Positions 13,536-58,212 of a stretch of DNA of 64,000 nt are shown piece after piece. The notes under the pieces are model-generated. The model had not been told where the DNA came from. It made no database searches and worked only from the letters and a program-made list of their open reading frames with translations. The position numbers were made by a program, and so were the translations under genes. Numbering within the stretch: the first letter of the stretch is position 1; each line of letters opens with the position of its first letter. The stretch is from the NCBI GenBank assembly GCA_038884755.1, contig JAWABJ010000001.1, positions 160,001 to 224,000 on the forward strand, read 5' to 3'. This stretch comes from Candidatus Norongarragalinales archaeon. GTDB lineage: Archaea > Micrarchaeota > Micrarchaeia > Norongarragalinales > Norongarragalinaceae.

Positions 13536-13566
13536 TTTTTGATAAAACTTTTTCGCAAAAAGTTTT
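13536..13566 (-). repeat. Hairpin plus A-tail element, family A
   Basis: Minus strand AAAACTTTTT-GCG-AAAAAGTTTT-ATC-AAAAA. Confidence 0.65.
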
Positions 13567-13596: not shown

Positions 13597-13639
13597 TCTT
13601 TTCTTTACTCAATTTTTCTTTTCCTAAAAGAAAAATTGG
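13597..13639 (-). repeat. Hairpin plus purine tail element, family A
   Basis: Minus strand CCAATTTTTCTTTT-AGG-AAAAGAAAAATTG-AGT-AAAGAAAA, closely similar to 17834-17875. Confidence 0.8.
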
Positions 13640-13640
13640 A

Positions 13641-13731
13641 GGGCTCGGTAGTCGTAATCTCATCATTCCGTTTTTTGATCAAACTTTTTATAAAAAAGTT
13701 TGTCAGAGTCAAGCCTTTATCTTCATAGCCC
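13641..13731 (-). ncRNA. Box C/D sRNA candidate with a family-A hairpin between D' and C'
   Basis: GGGC/GCCC terminal stem; C ATGAAGA (13726-13720), 13-nt guide, D' CTGA (13706-13703), 36-nt insert, C' ATGATGA (13666-13660), 11-nt guide, D CCGA (13648-13645). Confidence 0.7.
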
Positions 13732-14831: not shown

Positions 14832-15027
14832 GCCGGGATGGCAGAGTGGTTAATGCGCACGCTTGGAAAGTCTTTTTCTGGTTGCTCTTTTTCGAGCGTA
14901 CCGAAAACTTCCCTTACAGCGTGTGGCCGAAAGGCCTCCTGAGTTCGAAAGCTTTTCTTTCTTTGCAAAAGAAAGAAAACCTTGGAAAAGAAAGAAAACG
15001 CGAGAGACGAGATTCTCAGTCCCGGCG
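14832..15027 (+). tRNA. tRNA-Ser(GGA) with two introns: 37/38 (14869-14917) and 59/60 (14950-15013)
   Basis: Acceptor GCCGGGA/TCCCGGC; anticodon arm CACGC-TTGGAA|A-GCGTG; long variable arm; T arm CTGAG-TTCGAA|T-CTCAG; TTCG/CGAG central helix. Confidence 0.9.
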
Positions 15028-17747: not shown

Positions 17748-17832
17748 GCAGGGGTGGCAGAGCCTGGTCAAATGCGCTAGCTTGAGGTGCTAGTCTCTTA
17801 GGAGTTCGGGGGTTCAAATCCCTCCCCCTGCA
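17748..17832 (+). tRNA. tRNA-Leu(GAG), no intron
   Basis: GCAGGGG/CCCCTGC acceptor; CTAGC-TTGAGGT-GCTAG anticodon arm; long variable arm; TTCAAAT T loop. Confidence 0.95.
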
Positions 17833-17875
17833 TTGAATTTTTCTTTTAGAAAAAGAAAAATTCAGTAAAGAAAAA
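17833..17875 (+). repeat. Family A element abutting the tRNA-Leu discriminator
   Basis: TTGAATTTTTCTTTT-AGA-AAAAGAAAAATTCA-GT-AAAGAAAAA; nearly identical to the tRNA-Gly 37/38 intron. Confidence 0.85.
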
Positions 17876-17905
17876 CGAAAATGTTCGAAAAGAGTTGGAA
17901 ACAAA

Positions 17906-18277
17906 ATGAAGAAATCCAAATTCAGAGGACCTGAAAGTTCCGAAGTCAAGGCGCTCGTTGCGTTTTTGGAAAAAACCGTGCGCAAGTCGCATTCGAGAGC
18001 GTGGGCCAGCGTAGCCTCGTTCATGCTGAAGCCCGCGCGCGTGAAGAAAGGCAAGGCGGTTAACTTGTACAAACTGGAAAAAATCGCGAAAGACGGGGAC
18101 GTGATAGTTATCCCGGGCGTTTTGCTTGGCGTGGGAGACTTAAAGAAGAAAATTACTGTTGCCGCATTCAAGGCAAGCGAGAGCGCGAGGGCCAAGCTCG
18201 GAAAAAATCTTGTTTCCATAAGGGCGCTGGCGGAGAAAAACCCAGAGGGAAAGAAAGTGAGGATAGTGATAGGCTGA
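17906..18277 (+). CDS. rpl18e: 50S ribosomal protein eL18
   Basis: VNLYKLEK, VIPGVLLGVG, ITVAAFKASESA, KNPEG. Confidence 0.93.
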   Translation: MKKSKFRGPESSEVKALVAFLEKTVRKSHSRAWASVASFMLKPARVKKGKAVNLYKLEKIAKDGDVIVIPGVLLGVGDLKKKITVAAFKASESARAKLGKNLVSIRALAEKNPEGKKVRIVIG

Positions 18278-18302
18278 TGTTTTTGAGGAAAGCGTGGTTT
18301 GA

Positions 18303-18725
18303 ATGATTGTGATAAACGGGGAGAAAGCGGTTTTCGGTCGCGTGCTGGCGTTTGCAGCCAAGAAGCTTCAGGAAGGAGAGGACGTGGTGGTCGTAAACGC
18401 GGAAAAGACGGTAATTTCCGGAAATCCAGAGCGGATAATAGCGCGTTATCACGCGAAGCGCGGGATATCCAACAAGGGCAATCCCGAGCACGCACCAAAA
18501 TTCCCGGTCCGCCCGGACTTGTTTTTGAAGTACATTTTAAGGGGAATGCTCCCGAAGAAAAAAGCTAGCGGGAAGAAGGCGAGGGAAAAGTTCAAGGCGT
18601 TTTTGGGAATGCCGAAGGAATTCGAAGGAAAGGCGCAAAAGTTTTACAAGACTTCCGAAGACTTGAGCGTAAGCTTCGTTTCGCTCGAGGAAATCTGCAA
18701 GAGGCTAGGCTGGAAGAGGGCTTGA
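18303..18725 (+). CDS. rpl13: 50S ribosomal protein uL13
   Basis: VVVNAEKTVISG, RPD..LRGMLP. Confidence 0.95.
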   Translation: MIVINGEKAVFGRVLAFAAKKLQEGEDVVVVNAEKTVISGNPERIIARYHAKRGISNKGNPEHAPKFPVRPDLFLKYILRGMLPKKKASGKKAREKFKAFLGMPKEFEGKAQKFYKTSEDLSVSFVSLEEICKRLGWKRA

Positions 18726-18747
18726 CTGTTGGAACGGTGTGTTGAAA

Positions 18748-19194
18748 ATGGCTGAAGATGCGGTGAAAAAGGAAGCTAAACCCAAGAAAATTCGAAAGAA
18801 AAAGCAGGTCGTGGAAAGGGGCAAGCGAAAGGAAGCGATAGCCCGCGCTTCAATCAAGGCAGGAAAGGGCGTGATTCGCGTTAACGGAATAGCGCTTACT
18901 GCGTTTCCCAACCCTTACGCCAGGCAAATCATGGCCGAGCCGCTGTCTTTCTTGGACCAGCAGGATTTCGACATAGACGTTTCGGTCCGCGGCGGGGGAG
19001 TGATGGGGCAGGCGCAGGCAGTGCGCACCGCAATAGCAAGAGCAATCCTGGCGTTCAAGAAGGGCAGCGAAGAGCTGAAAAAAGCGTTCGTCGATTACGA
19101 CCGGTTTATTCTTGTCGAAGACGCGAGGCGCGTGGAGCCCAAGAAGTTCAAGGGGCCAAAGGCGCGCGCTCGCTTTACTAAATCATACCGTTAA
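18748..19194 (+). CDS. rps9: 30S ribosomal protein uS9
   Basis: GKRKEAIARA, GGGVMGQAQAVRTAIAR, EPKKFKGPKARARFTKSYR. Confidence 0.97.
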   Translation: MAEDAVKKEAKPKKIRKKKQVVERGKRKEAIARASIKAGKGVIRVNGIALTAFPNPYARQIMAEPLSFLDQQDFDIDVSVRGGGVMGQAQAVRTAIARAILAFKKGSEELKKAFVDYDRFILVEDARRVEPKKFKGPKARARFTKSYR

Positions 19195-19212
19195 AATGGG
19201 GTGTTTGTGAAA

Positions 19213-19410
19213 ATGTTGATTCCCGTGCGTTGTTTTACTTGCGGCAAGCCAGTCGCCGAGTATTGGGAGTCTTTCGAAGAGCGCACTTCGAAAGGTGAGG
19301 ATGCAGGCAAGGTTTTAAGCGAATTGGGCTTGAACCGTTATTGCTGCAGGAGAATGTTCCTGGGGCAAGTGGACCTGATGGACGAAATCCTGCCCTACCA
19401 GAGGTTTTAA
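19213..19410 (+). CDS. rpoN: RNA polymerase subunit N (Rpo10)
   Basis: MLIPVRCFTCGK..RYCCRRM. Confidence 0.97.
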   Translation: MLIPVRCFTCGKPVAEYWESFEERTSKGEDAGKVLSELGLNRYCCRRMFLGQVDLMDEILPYQRF

Positions 19411-19439
19411 CTTTTTCTCGACACCCCATTAGTAGAGAT

Positions 19440-19512
19440 GGGGCTGTGGGGTAGCCTGGTATCCTGCATGGCTGGGGGCCATGCGACCTGAGTTCGAATC
19501 TCAGCAGCCCCA
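19440..19512 (+). tRNA. tRNA-Pro(GGG), no intron
   Basis: GGGGCTG/CAGCCCC; CATGG-CTGGGGG-CCATG; TTCGAAT. Confidence 0.95.
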
Positions 19513-19546
19513 CTGTTTTTTTTTCATGCCACCTGAGGCTTCAAAA

Positions 19547-20794
19547 ATGGACAAAAAAAAGGCAATGCTCTGGATATTGTTTTCGGTCGTGTTTCTTGAT
19601 CTGCTGGGCTTCGGCTTGGTAATCCCTATTTTCGCGCCTTTGTTCATCAACCCTTCCTACGGACTGCTTCCTTTGGACTACTCTTACGAAACGCGCGCGG
19701 TTTTGCTCGGTTTGTTTCTCGGCTCTTACGCGATGATGATGTTCTTTTCCACTCCCATTCTCGGCGCGCTGTCGGACAAGCACGGCCGCAAGAAGCTCTT
19801 GATTTTTTCACTCGCGGGAACGGTAGTAGGGTATTTGATTATCGGCGCAGGCGTTTTTACTAAAAACGTTTGGCTGATGTTCGCAGGCCGCATTCTCGAC
19901 GGGATTACGGGCGGCAACATTTCAATCGCGCAAGCCGCTATCGCTGATTTGAGCGACGAGAAATCGAAAGCAAAAAACTTTGGTTTGATAGGCATGGCTT
20001 TCGGGCTGGGTTTCATCATCGGCCCGTTTTTGGGCGGAAAGCTTTCCGACCCGAACGTGGTTTCGTGGTTCAATACCGCGACGCCGTTCTGGTTTACCGC
20101 CGCGTTTTCCCTCTGCGCCTTGCTCTTGCTCGCATGGCGTTTTGAAGAGACTCTGGAGAAAAAGAACGAGCGCATCAAAATCGACGCTTTCACTGGCTTG
20201 CGCAACGTTGCGAAAGGCCTTGCCATGCGCAATTTGCGCGTGATGTTTGCGGTGCTTATGCTTTTTGCCTTCGGCTTCACTTTCTTCAACCAGTTTTTCC
20301 AAGTGTTTTTGATAAAACGCTTTTCATTCACTCCCGCGCAGATAGGAGATTTCTTCGCTTTCTTCGGGCTGTGCGCCGCATTAACGCAAGGCGTGATAGT
20401 GCGCTGGGTTTCCCCTCGCTTTCCTCCTGAATCCGTGCTTTCCAAAAGCCTGCTGGGCATTTCGTTGTGCATGGCCGCCACGCTGCTCGTTCCCCAAGCT
20501 TGGGGGTTGTACCTGCTCGTGCCTTTGCTTTCTGTCTTTCAAGGGCTTTCCTTCCCCAACACCACCGCCCTTATGTCCAACCTCGCTGGCAAAGAGTCGC
20601 AAGGCGAGATTCTCGGCATAAGCACTTCCATCCAGTCGCTGGGAATGGCTTTGCCGCCTCTGGTTGCAGGACTGATAGCTGCATTGGACTATACTTTCCC
20701 CGTGTTAGCTGCCAGTTTACTCATGCTTTTAGCTTGGGCGGTTTTCGTTTTTTCCTTCAAGCCTTCTTTGAAACAAGCGTTTCACGAAGCGTGA
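19547..20794 (+). CDS. MFS transporter, DHA1/TetA-like
   Basis: LDLLGFGLVIP, GALSDKHGRK motif A, GRILDGITGGN, FGLGFIIGP motif C. Confidence 0.9.
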   Translation: MDKKKAMLWILFSVVFLDLLGFGLVIPIFAPLFINPSYGLLPLDYSYETRAVLLGLFLGSYAMMMFFSTPILGALSDKHGRKKLLIFSLAGTVVGYLIIGAGVFTKNVWLMFAGRILDGITGGNISIAQAAIADLSDEKSKAKNFGLIGMAFGLGFIIGPFLGGKLSDPNVVSWFNTATPFWFTAAFSLCALLLLAWRFEETLEKKNERIKIDAFTGLRNVAKGLAMRNLRVMFAVLMLFAFGFTFFNQFFQVFLIKRFSFTPAQIGDFFAFFGLCAALTQGVIVRWVSPRFPPESVLSKSLLGISLCMAATLLVPQAWGLYLLVPLLSVFQGLSFPNTTALMSNLAGKESQGEILGISTSIQSLGMALPPLVAGLIAALDYTFPVLAASLLMLLAWAVFVFSFKPSLKQAFHEA

Positions 20795-21714
20795 GTTTCG
20801 TCGTCAAGCTCTTTCTTCGACTTCCAAAAGAAGAATCCTATAACGGCGAAGGTGATTGCTCCCGAAGTCCACTCGGGAATGTGCATTCCGAAAGCGTTCA
20901 AAATCATTATGCAACCCAAGAAAAGCACGGAGTACATTGCGCCGTTCTTCAAGTACCCGTATTTCTTTACCCGTTCGATGTTGCTTATGGTCAACTGGCG
21001 CACGGCAATTGCTCCCAATCCGCTTCCGATTATTATCAATGGCACAGAGAAAGTGAATGCGAACGCTCCAAGCACCCCGTCGATGGAGAACGTTGCGTCT
21101 ATGACTTCCAAGTACATTATCTTGCTCCAGTCGCTCAAGTGCGTTCCTTCGTGCATTAATTCCCTTTCCTTCATTTCAGCGTTTTGTTTGAAGCCATGGG
21201 TAATGAAAAAAGCCGTCGAGCCCACGACCGCCCCGAAAGCCATCATGTCGTTCTTTTGGAGTGCAAACCACGTGAGTACCGTAAGCAGAATTGCGACTAC
21301 GGTGTAGAACCACACGCCCCTCTTGTAAATTGGCTCTTCCCAACTCATTCCGAACTTCTTTTTCTCGAGGAAAAGCCAGTTCAACCCCAGGAAAACCATG
21401 AACACTCCCGCCATCATTAGCAGCACGGGTTTGCTTTGTTCTATCTGTTCTGCAACCGCCGGGTCTTCGCTCAAGGTTGCGGTGAAAGAGCCTTGAATGC
21501 CGAGGGAAGGGTTTGAAACGAATATTATGAACCACGGCAGCAAGCCCCTGACCAGGAACACGGCGATGAGCATTCCCCAAAGCAAAAACCACCTTTTCGC
21601 CTTTTCGCTCATCGTGTTCAAAACGTGGGCGTTTATGACCGCGTTGTCCACGCTCAGGATTAGCTCGAATACCGCCAATCCCAAAACAGCTAGAACTGCG
21701 GAAAAAACATCCAC
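20782..21714 (-). CDS. DUF475 / TerC-related membrane protein
   Basis: FELILSVDNAVINA, YLEVIDATFSIDGVLGAFA; start uncertain. Confidence 0.85.
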   Translation of the reverse strand: MDVFSAVLAVLGLAVFELILSVDNAVINAHVLNTMSEKAKRWFLLWGMLIAVFLVRGLLPWFIIFVSNPSLGIQGSFTATLSEDPAVAEQIEQSKPVLLMMAGVFMVFLGLNWLFLEKKKFGMSWEEPIYKRGVWFYTVVAILLTVLTWFALQKNDMMAFGAVVGSTAFFITHGFKQNAEMKERELMHEGTHLSDWSKIMYLEVIDATFSIDGVLGAFAFTFSVPLIIIGSGLGAIAVRQLTISNIERVKKYGYLKNGAMYSVLFLGCIMILNAFGMHIPEWTSGAITFAVIGFFFWKSKKELDDETHAS

Positions 21715-21803
21715 CTTGCAAACGCCCTTTTTTTCTTCCTGAAATTGAAAACTAGTTTCGAATTGCAAGGTTAATTAAGTTTTTCAAACCTTTTTCTATA
21801 ACT

Positions 21804-21985
21804 GCGGCGATGGTCTAGTGGTATGATCCGAGCCTTCCATTGAATTTTTCTTTTTTTTTACAAAAAAAGAAAAATTCAGTAAAGAAAAAACTTTCAGGAA
21901 AGCTTGAGGCCCGGGTTCGATAGGGGCGAAACTGCGTTTCTCCCTCTTCCTTTCGGAAAAGGTGCCGAAAATCCCGGTCGCCGCA
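21804..21985 (+). tRNA. tRNA-Gly(TCC) with two introns: 37/38 (21840-21900) and 59/60 (21922-21971)
   Basis: GCGGCGA/TCGCCGC; CGAGC-CTTCCA|A-GCTTG; CCGGG-TTCGAT|T-CCCGG with TTCG/CGAA central helix. Confidence 0.9.
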
Positions 21986-29160: not shown

Positions 29161-29323
29161 GGGCCTTTAGTATAGCCTGGATAGAATAGGGGCTTCCGAA
29201 GCCTCAGACAGGGGTTCGAAGACCGCCTTTTCTTTTTAGAAAAAGAAAATGCGGTCGGCCGAAAAGAAAACGGTCGTCAGTCTCAAAGAAGCGCGGACTA
29301 GAACGGAAATCCCCTAAGGCCCG
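29161..29323 (+). tRNA. tRNA-Arg(CCG) with an 89-nt intron at 59/60 (29221-29309)
   Basis: GGGCCTT/AAGGCCC; GGGGC-TTCCGAA-GCCTC; AGGGG-TTCGAA|T-CCCCT; TTCG/CGGA helix. Confidence 0.9.
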
Positions 29324-29405
29324 CTTTGCGCTAACCGGCGAGAGCTCAAGCTCGAGCTTTCGCAAGGTAGAGAATAAGAAACCCGCAGTGAAAATTATTT
29401 ATCAC

Positions 29406-29525
29406 GGGCCCGTGTGGTAATGGACAACCGGCGGGGCTTCGGACCCCGAGTTGCGCGTTCGAAGAACCTTTCTTTGCGAAAGAAAGCTTTGCCAAAGAAA
29501 GGCAGCGAAAATCGCGCCGGGCCCG
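29406..29525 (+). tRNA. tRNA-Arg(TCG) with a 48-nt intron at 59/60 (29464-29511)
   Basis: GGGCCCG/CGGGCCC; CGGGG-CTTCGGA-CCCCG; GCGCG-TTCGAA|T-CGCGC; TTCG/CGAA helix. Confidence 0.88.
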
Positions 29526-29526
29526 C

Positions 29527-29576
29527 TTAAACTTTCTTTTTTTTGCGAAAAAAGAAAGTTTAATCAAAGAAAAAGG
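29527..29576 (+). repeat. Family A element in the tRNA-Arg(TCG) trailer
   Basis: TTAAACTTTCTTTTTTT-GCG-AAAAAAGAAAGTTTAA-TC-AAAGAAAAAG. Confidence 0.8.
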
Positions 29577-50492: not shown

Positions 50493-50534
50493 AAACTTTC
50501 TTTTTCGCAAAAAGAAAGTTTGATCAAAGAAAAA
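50493..50534 (+). repeat. Family A element abutting the tRNA-Arg(CCT) 5' end, antisense to the tRNA
   Basis: AAACTTTCTTTTT-CGC-AAAAAGAAAGTTT-GATC-AAAGAAAAA. Confidence 0.8.
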
Positions 50535-58085: not shown

Positions 58086-58212
58086 GGCGCAGATGGTGTA
58101 GTGGTTAGCATCGGGGCTTGTGGTGGACTTCTTTCTTTTGGAAAAGAAAGACCTCCACTAGAAAGAAAACCGCAATCAGCCCTTGACCCGAGTTCGAATC
58201 TCGGTCTGCGCC
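58086..58212 (+). tRNA. tRNA-His(GTG) with encoded G-1 and a 54-nt intron at 37/38 (58124-58177)
   Basis: G-GCGCAGA/TCTGCGC-C; GGGGC-TTGTGG|A-GCCCT; BHB with central helix TTGT/GCAA and outer GG/CC pairs. Confidence 0.92.

Follow-up and report, generated by a model that had tools for sequence, protein, structure and literature searches.

A short dispersed repeat of about 40 nt, present as the trailer of a tRNA-Leu(GAG) gene and inside an intron of a tRNA-Gly(TCC) gene, was analysed in a 64,000-nt stretch of DNA (the window) from contig JAWABJ010000001.1 of a Candidatus Norongarragalinales archaeon, whose genome (G000) comprises 927 kb in 9 contigs and is 93% complete. The repeat has a three-arm layout, in which a pyrimidine arm is followed by a loop, a complementary purine arm, a linker and a second purine arm that mirrors the first. 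The arms co-vary as mirrors, subfamilies are common to unrelated loci, copies stand in both orientations, and orthologous sites are filled in some genomes and empty in others. It is probable, and we say so with moderate confidence, that the repeat is a non-autonomous, triplex-type micro-element which spreads at the DNA level and is kept where its excision by the splicing endonuclease EndA is possible, both fold and splicing being predictions.

The tRNA-Leu(GAG) gene (17748-17832, plus strand) is intronless and lies between a DUF167 gene and rpl18e. As described in an initial annotation of the window, matching strings are present at 17833 and 21840, the former beginning directly 3' of A73 of tRNA-Leu(GAG) and the latter directly 3' of A37 of tRNA-Gly(TCC). 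The Leu copy (17833-17875, plus strand), a member of the AATTCAGT subfamily, is composed of a pyrimidine arm (17840-17847), a loop (17848-17850), a purine arm (17851-17858), a linker (17859-17866) and a mirror arm (17867-17874), and its hairpin spans 17834-17864 with a DNA fold z of -5.3. In the Gly copy (21842-21890, plus strand), the pyrimidine arm, purine arm, linker and mirror arm are located at 21847-21856, 21863-21872, 21873-21880 and 21881-21890, respectively. The copies had been annotated as differing only at the hairpin tip; the tip does differ, but so do the arm lengths, with a triplex stem of 8 nt in Leu and 10 nt in Gly. The Gly intron further carries 10 nt (21891-21900, plus strand) beyond the sequence shared with the Leu copy. 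This adaptor pairs with anticodon-loop positions 32-34, supplies the splice helix and possibly arose as a linker repeat that has since decayed. The TT that follows CA in both copies did not hold up as a family feature, since the 5' edge of the subfamily is xAATT or xGATT and not TTGAATT. No target-site duplication was seen at the two sites, as annotated, and the junction ambiguity at the Gly site is 1 nt.

The tRNA-Gly(TCC) gene occupies 21804-21985 on the plus strand (exons 21804-21839, 21901-21921 and 21972-21985) and was overlooked by ARAGORN and Rfam because two introns interrupt it. Excision of intron 1 (21840-21900, 61 nt, position 37/38) and intron 2 (21922-21971, 50 nt, T-loop position 59/60) yields a normal tRNA-Gly(TCC) cloverleaf. 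Intron 2 has a central helix of 4/4 pairs and lacks the triplex repeat. Intron 1 has a relaxed splice motif composed of the anticodon stem and a central helix of 3/4 pairs, without an outer helix; it departs from the strict 3-4-3 bulge-helix-bulge (BHB) form, and a competing register is present in its centroid fold (DNA parameters). Of the three tRNA-Gly genes found, no other has a TCC anticodon, and the 37/38 intron is therefore presumably spliced in vivo.

The exact 22-nt core of the repeat occurs at 8 places in G000, and at 17 places when up to three changes are allowed. A structure-based search returned 41 loci with the three-arm pattern, compared with 0-1 in each of five Markov-5 controls. 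Placement and orientation were classified by hand. The copies are distributed over tRNA introns (25, in the D-loop, anticodon and T-arm), tRNA trailers (6), tRNA leaders (2), rRNA introns (3), an RNase P-like RNA (1, by eye), positions right after stop codons (3) and a spacer before cbf5 (1); 37/41 are contained in or adjoin stable-RNA genes, and no creditable copy among the 41 lies within a protein gene. Relative to the host RNA, 33 copies are sense, 7 are antisense (2 leaders and 5 introns, often opposite a sense copy) and 1 is unassigned. Some degenerate copies were not counted, among them that of tRNA-Gly(CCC), whose intron is the repeat alone. Except for tRNA-Tyr, the AATT-type intron copies checked have their hairpin foot within the intron, 0-2 nt from the 5' splice site.

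The sequence is of low complexity, and its recurrence might be ascribed to chance similarity of A/T runs, to convergent terminators, U-tracts being archaeal terminators, or to mis-assembly. This explanation is very improbable and is largely refuted by the exact core at 8 places, by the 0-1 matches in the controls and by the finding that a genome of the same genus (G002) has the same subfamily at orthologous sites, which also makes the assembly artefact considered in the initial annotation unlikely. Terminators inside introns and in the tRNA-Leu-rpl18e operon would be harmful. At the read level, one contig of a sequencing run that is possibly the source sample spans 17805-18453 without a difference, starting 28 nt before 17833. 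In favour of an artefact, none of the 8 run contigs shown, out of 40, bridges the Gly 37/38 intron; a run-contig joint that skips 21922-21971 has a 22-nt side and may derive from another tRNA-Gly gene.

The third arm tracks the mirror image of the second arm. The mirror test was restricted to single-G copies, with two-G copies and linkers without a pyrimidine dropped. The inner A-runs (the run 3' of the G in arm 2 and the run 5' of the G in arm 3) agreed in 24/33 copies of G000 and 122/152 copies of relatives, compared with shuffle means of 12.7 and 45.7 and shuffle maxima of 21 and 66, respectively. Similar results were observed for the outer A-runs (22/33 and 104/152; shuffle means 9.8 and 46.1), while the direct-repeat pairings remained at chance, with 13 and 13 of 33 in G000 and 32 and 36 of 152 in relatives. 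Among pairs with the same linker, the change was of the mirror type in 12/14 and of the direct-repeat type in 2/14, and the viral contigs gave 48/58 mirror agreements versus 19.1. The copies are related and were chosen by a pattern that fixes the core, so these values are counts and not probabilities; kinship would inflate the direct test too. A switch in which one arm serves two partners was rejected because arm 3 tracks the mirror and not the direct repeat. A de novo origin from host sequence was rejected as well, the linkers recurring across loci and genomes.

Both starting copies have the class II layout of a 5' pyrimidine arm, a complementary purine arm and a 3' mirror purine arm, the stem measuring 8 nt in Leu and 10 nt in Gly. 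Tail length goes with hairpin length, Gly exceeding Leu in both (10 triads versus 8). With loops of 3 + 8 nt (Leu) and 6 + 8 nt (Gly), they fall within the Hoyne definition as cited in PMC4666352 (a stem of more than 7 perfect triads and loops of 0-10 nt). The second loop of 8 nt places them outside the ITxF definition (loops of 1-6 nt), and ITxF-type searches would therefore miss both. According to PMC4666352, purine-motif triplexes do not form in RNA. Since 33 copies show the class II layout in the transcript, where such a triplex is barred, the selected fold is more likely one of DNA than of RNA.

Comparison with related genomes, as suggested in the initial annotation, revealed filled and empty alleles. 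In a tree of three ribosomal proteins, G000 groups with G001 and G002 (95% support), G001 belonging to the sister clade of G000. The clearest case is a site in 16S rRNA, at which G002 is empty with 100% identical flanks and G000 carries an insert of 51 nt, consisting of the repeat from intron base 1 and 10 nt that complete a 4/4 helix, with an ambiguity of 2 nt. The same site is empty in G003 and G023 and carries other subfamilies in G007 and G026. One 23S intron is common to G000 and G002 and is empty in G023. The syntenic tRNA-Gly(TCC) gene was compared in G001, G003 and G004 (no G002 copy was returned); it has no intron in G001 and G003, and in G004 another module occupies position 37/38. 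As G000 groups with G001 and G002, gain of the Gly(TCC) intron in G000 is parsimonious, with loss plus module swap as a possible alternative. The tRNA-Leu(GAG) trailers of G001-G004 lack the repeat, and their divergence is too great to fix boundaries. On these sequence comparisons, recent intron gain in G000 is likely. The initial annotation had proposed a snapshot of intron gain; a family shared between introns and trailers is borne out, the recent gain is likely, and ligation of RNA at processing sites is the part that finds no support.

The pattern was found in 24/24 other genomes of the family and in 93/301 genomes of the phylum, with 5 to 54 matches per genome within the genus. The same motif is intergenic in many bacteria and is also present on viral contigs. 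The bacterial and viral motif is mostly distant from tRNA genes, with a tRNA call at 5/60 scanned loci (four bacterial and one archaeal) by ARAGORN, which misses interrupted tRNA genes. A rule placing the hairpin foot at the stop codon in bacteria was not general (median 69 nt). At the bacterial loci L335, L365, L373, L378 and L395, motif copies face each other in pairs across about 400 bp, as if they bounded a larger non-coding element. In G007 (L202, L203 and L213), the repeat forms head-to-tail arrays within tRNA and rRNA introns.

For a micro-element that spreads at the DNA level, the following course is proposed. The fold would form on single-stranded DNA, as a purine motif on this strand or as a pyrimidine motif on the complement, and the folded DNA would be recognised by a trans-acting nuclease or a host repair factor. 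Polymerase slippage or fold-back yields direct or inverted repeats, not mirrors, and therefore some step would select for the triplex. Copies would enter, or replace each other, at the DNA level, mostly in highly transcribed genes of structured stable RNAs. A copy would survive outside the mature sequence (trailer, leader or post-stop position) or within an existing intron, and also where an adaptor of 0-12 nt lets its ends form a relaxed bulge-helix motif; an adaptor-bearing copy, spliceable by an epsilon2-type EndA and RtcB, would be a new intron. Processing sites would thus act as a filter and not as the entry route. We tentatively extend this proposal to a donor: a triplex-folding micro-element of about 40 nt, intergenic in bacteria, is possibly the direct source of new protein-spliced introns in Micrarchaeota, one insertion and a few adaptor bases giving a tRNA or rRNA intron that a broad-specificity EndA would remove.

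The splicing enzymes are encoded in G000. Its EndA (G000:C1, about 633.7-634.9 kb) matches 4FZ2, which we take to be the ARMAN-2 epsilon2 EndA, over the full length (E = 3e-125), and RtcB was found. The ARMAN-2 epsilon2 EndA cuts relaxed hBH motifs in vitro (PMC3239211). DUF559 was considered as a mobiliser. It has matches in 32/301 Micrarchaeota genomes, and the repeat is present in 19/32 of these versus 74/269 of the others (hand count). The candidate was rejected because kinship confounds the association and the repeat-rich genomes G000, G007, G037 and G217 lack DUF559.

Several points weigh against a mobile DNA element. The shuffle tests overstate the mirror signal because the copies are related, and an A-rich triplex of 7-10 triads, itself a predicted fold, may be weak. 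The Gly 37/38 splice helix has only three of its four pairs. Another 23S intron keeps its ends between G000 and G002 while the inner module differs, and the tRNA-Tyr intron keeps its ends across the genus while the module changes; the repeat is sometimes a passenger or a replacement in an older intron. No match to Y1_Tnp, DUF559, RVT_1 or GIY-YIG was obtained in G000 at its 93% completeness, the exact motif was within 1.5 kb of DUF559 in 0/30 loci, and no recurrent nuclease was found among 138 neighbour proteins of 78 loci (80 genome loci fetched), which included one IS4/5 fragment and one serine recombinase. The bias towards stable-RNA genes (37/41) and towards the sense orientation (33 versus 7) exceeds what purifying selection alone would give, and targeting would be needed. 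Finally, at 11 hand-chosen tRNA loci in relatives (about 7 of them independent), the repeat comes after a duplicated tRNA 5' piece whose left edge is 0-4 nt away from the mature 5' terminus, the sequence further left being unrelated.

The last two points are those that an RNA route would explain. Under that route, trailer RNA or intron RNA, the latter excised or circular, would be joined to other stable RNAs by ligation or reverse splicing, and its sequence would return to DNA through a reverse transcriptase acting in trans or through RNA-templated repair. An RNA-templated step is compatible with both the stable-RNA bias and the duplicated tRNA 5' pieces, and these pieces would equally suit recombination with another tRNA gene. 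The presence of EndA and RtcB also speaks for this route, as does the lack of target duplication: an upstream flank of at least 11 nt repeated after the element was found in 0/39 copies of G000 versus 117/3600 controls. The RNA route as a whole is nevertheless quite unlikely. The initial annotation had favoured it on the basis of insertion at RNA processing sites, a match that holds for the two starting copies but is largely circular for introns, because in an intronless 16S or anticodon loop the cut site comes only with the intron; the empty alleles have none. The 7/41 antisense copies, the 3 post-stop copies, the lack of an added CCA in 6/6 tRNA trailer copies and the lack of an RVT_1 match in G000 all argue against ligation, and the mirror arm and the bacterial intergenic copies would be left unexplained. 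RNase Z leaves 3'-OH and 5'-phosphate ends. EndA leaves 5'-OH and 2',3'-cyclic phosphate ends (PMC4090602), and therefore one ligase does not serve both sites. Ligation at pre-existing processing sites is thus unlikely.

Flank duplication was also analysed in relatives, where an upstream flank of at least 11 nt is repeated after the element in 15/165 copies versus 57/5960 controls; two of the 15 cases are longer tandem units, some are orthologous to each other and some lie at protein-gene starts. The duplications vary in length in some relatives (11-41 nt) and look like insertion into a gene that was rescued by duplication. At L054, L057, L232-L235, L246, L247 and L250, a duplicated tRNA 5' piece of 7-27 nt is followed by the repeat and then by the intact gene. 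At L246 (G250:C3, minus strand, near 346), the repeat follows a diverged duplicate of the N-terminal part of a protein gene, presumably SBDS-like, and the intact gene restarts downstream.

The repeat might instead be a cassette useful to the host, that is, a triplex motif under selection at stable-RNA genes, with intron gain incidental. It could bind a protein, act as a roadblock to transcription or replication, or shield tRNA genes from tRNA-targeting integrases, and could be homogenised, or swapped between older introns, via gene conversion. Consistent with such a role, orthologous sites keep the three-arm module despite a change of subfamily (23S intron, tRNA-Tyr intron and tRNA-Val leader), no mobilising gene was found in G000, and two repeat-bearing tRNA-Leu genes are each closely followed by a tyrosine-recombinase gene. 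The cassette is unlikely in view of the patchy copy number within the genus and across the phylum, the many tRNA genes without the repeat and the empty sites in close relatives; the tandem arrays and damage-like duplications look selfish. The two tyrosine-recombinase genes (G000:C1:432206-433234 and 568215-571313) are located about 70-90 nt behind tRNA-Leu(CAA) and tRNA-Leu(TAA). One of them encodes a 1032-aa fusion and is followed by island-like genes. No separate att-type tRNA duplicate was found for the two genes, and no link to the repeat was seen.

Six further members of the wider family lie in the window, together with two T-only variants. A copy with two-G arms and 12 triads (14953-14997, plus strand) lies in the T-loop intron of an uncalled tRNA-Ser(GGA) gene, which extends from 14832 to about 15028 on the plus strand between cbf5 and rps13 and has both an anticodon and a T-loop intron. 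Three plus-strand copies are associated with tandem tRNA-Arg genes (CCG and TCG; 29161-29525, plus strand), both missed by ARAGORN: one in the T-loop intron of tRNA-Arg(CCG) (29228-29270), one in that of tRNA-Arg(TCG) (29469-29500) and one in the trailer of tRNA-Arg(TCG) (29533-29574). The copy at 50497-50534 (plus strand) is antisense in the 5' leader of the minus-strand tRNA-Arg(CCT) gene, and its hairpin foot touches G1; an asymmetric copy at 58130-58169 (plus strand) lies in the anticodon intron of tRNA-His(GTG). The rRNA operon (L001, G000:C1:681-687.6 kb) contains long introns bearing open reading frames, group I introns and several short repeat introns.

The third copy was annotated near 13597-13639, downstream of a C/D small RNA (sRNA). 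A copy with the AATTGAGT linker is indeed present at 13638-13599 of the minus strand, where the spacer before cbf5 is expanded, and the syntenic cbf5 spacer of G003 is short and lacks the repeat; the sRNA is unsupported. The stretch in question (13645-13666, minus strand) has C box and D' box motifs and no convincing C' or D box. It was rejected as a C/D sRNA because its 11-nt "guide" has the sequence of 16S rRNA itself and not of its complement, the pattern was found in 0/60 other genomes of the order and the best Rfam C/D match had E = 1.7. Its antisense match amounts to only 8 bp near the 16S 3' end (by eye). The 11-mer equals the 16S sense strand near the 16S 5' end and is possibly a captured fragment or a chance match. 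The two T-only three-arm variants, without the central C/G, flank this locus at 13671-13701 and 13536-13565 (minus strand).

A second recurring intron module, a GAAAC...GTTTCTC hairpin followed by CTCTTCCT, is present in the window at 21922-21971, so that intron 2 of tRNA-Gly(TCC) has a relative in tRNA-Gly(CCC) (G000:C1:300.8k); it also occurs at 656.99k of the same contig and at C2:66.6k. Its hosts are T-loop introns of tRNA-Gly(TCC), tRNA-Gly(CCC), tRNA-Arg(TCT) and tRNA-Arg(GCG), and some copies are outside tRNAs. Between the two starting copies, an MFS transporter gene (19481-20794, plus strand) encodes a protein that resembles Tet-type efflux families, far under curated cut-offs.

The arrival of archaeal tRNA introns has been addressed before. 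Intron gain via a mobile element was proposed for Caldiarchaeum (PMC3293823), and copying, mobile elements and reverse transcription were tested in Asgard archaea in a 2026 preprint, without a general route being found (10.64898/2026.10.13.758758). In Thermoproteales, almost identical introns are shared by unrelated tRNA genes and insertion positions, within the limits set by the BHB motif, and are supposed to have transposed at the DNA level (PMC4090602; 10.64898/2026.10.13.758758). The unit shared here differs in being a sub-intron module with a triplex signature, which stands in both orientations and is present also in rRNA introns, RNase P RNA, leaders, trailers and post-stop positions. 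ARMAN-2 (Ca. Micrarchaeum acidiphilum) belongs to the same phylum and shares 37/38 and 59/60 introns, a homologous EndA and, putatively, relaxed hBH motifs (PMC3239211), but its tested introns are 13 and 25 nt long, and no repeat family is mentioned in the accessible part of that report. In the present case, a recognisable candidate donor sequence is found within introns as well as on its own, and within a single genus some alleles carry it and others are empty. If the donor proposal is true, a donor is named for archaeal intron gain, and intrastrand-triplex repeats are units of transposition. The inserts also have a practical consequence: the tRNA genes that they interrupt escape ARAGORN and Rfam, and 16S and 23S genes become longer.

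REP/REPIN-RAYT systems and miniature inverted-repeat transposable elements (MITEs) share with the repeat the tiny hairpins, inverted pairs, tandem arrays and non-autonomous nature. The repeat is distinguished from REP/REPIN-RAYT by its mirror third arm and by the lack of Y1_Tnp (RAYT) in G000 or flanked by the repeats, and from MITEs and DDE transposons by the lack of a fixed-length target duplication, the ambiguity at the Gly and 16S sites being 0-2 nt. The closest resemblance is to BoxC/PIT/TMECO, which likewise consist of a pyrimidine arm, a complementary purine arm and a mirror purine arm (Holder et al. 2015, PMC4666352) and are likewise dispersed, with patchy copy number, inverted pairs and flanking instability (PMC4666352). 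Unlike the G/C-rich TMECO consensus (PMC4666352), the repeat is A/T-rich with a single G per unit. Unlike BoxC/PIT, it has an extra stem and a linker of 6-20 nt, is archaeal and resides in tRNA and rRNA introns; the word "tRNA" is absent from the main text of PMC4666352. No paper joining triplex repeats and archaeal introns was found in the open-access literature, supplements excepted, and the supplementary A/T-rich motif lists of PMC4666352 could already contain the bacterial motif. The repeat would work like a BoxC/PIT intrastrand-triplex repeat, and is not a TMECO, MITE or REPIN; the case also bears on the nature of the bacterial BoxC/PIT triplex repeats.

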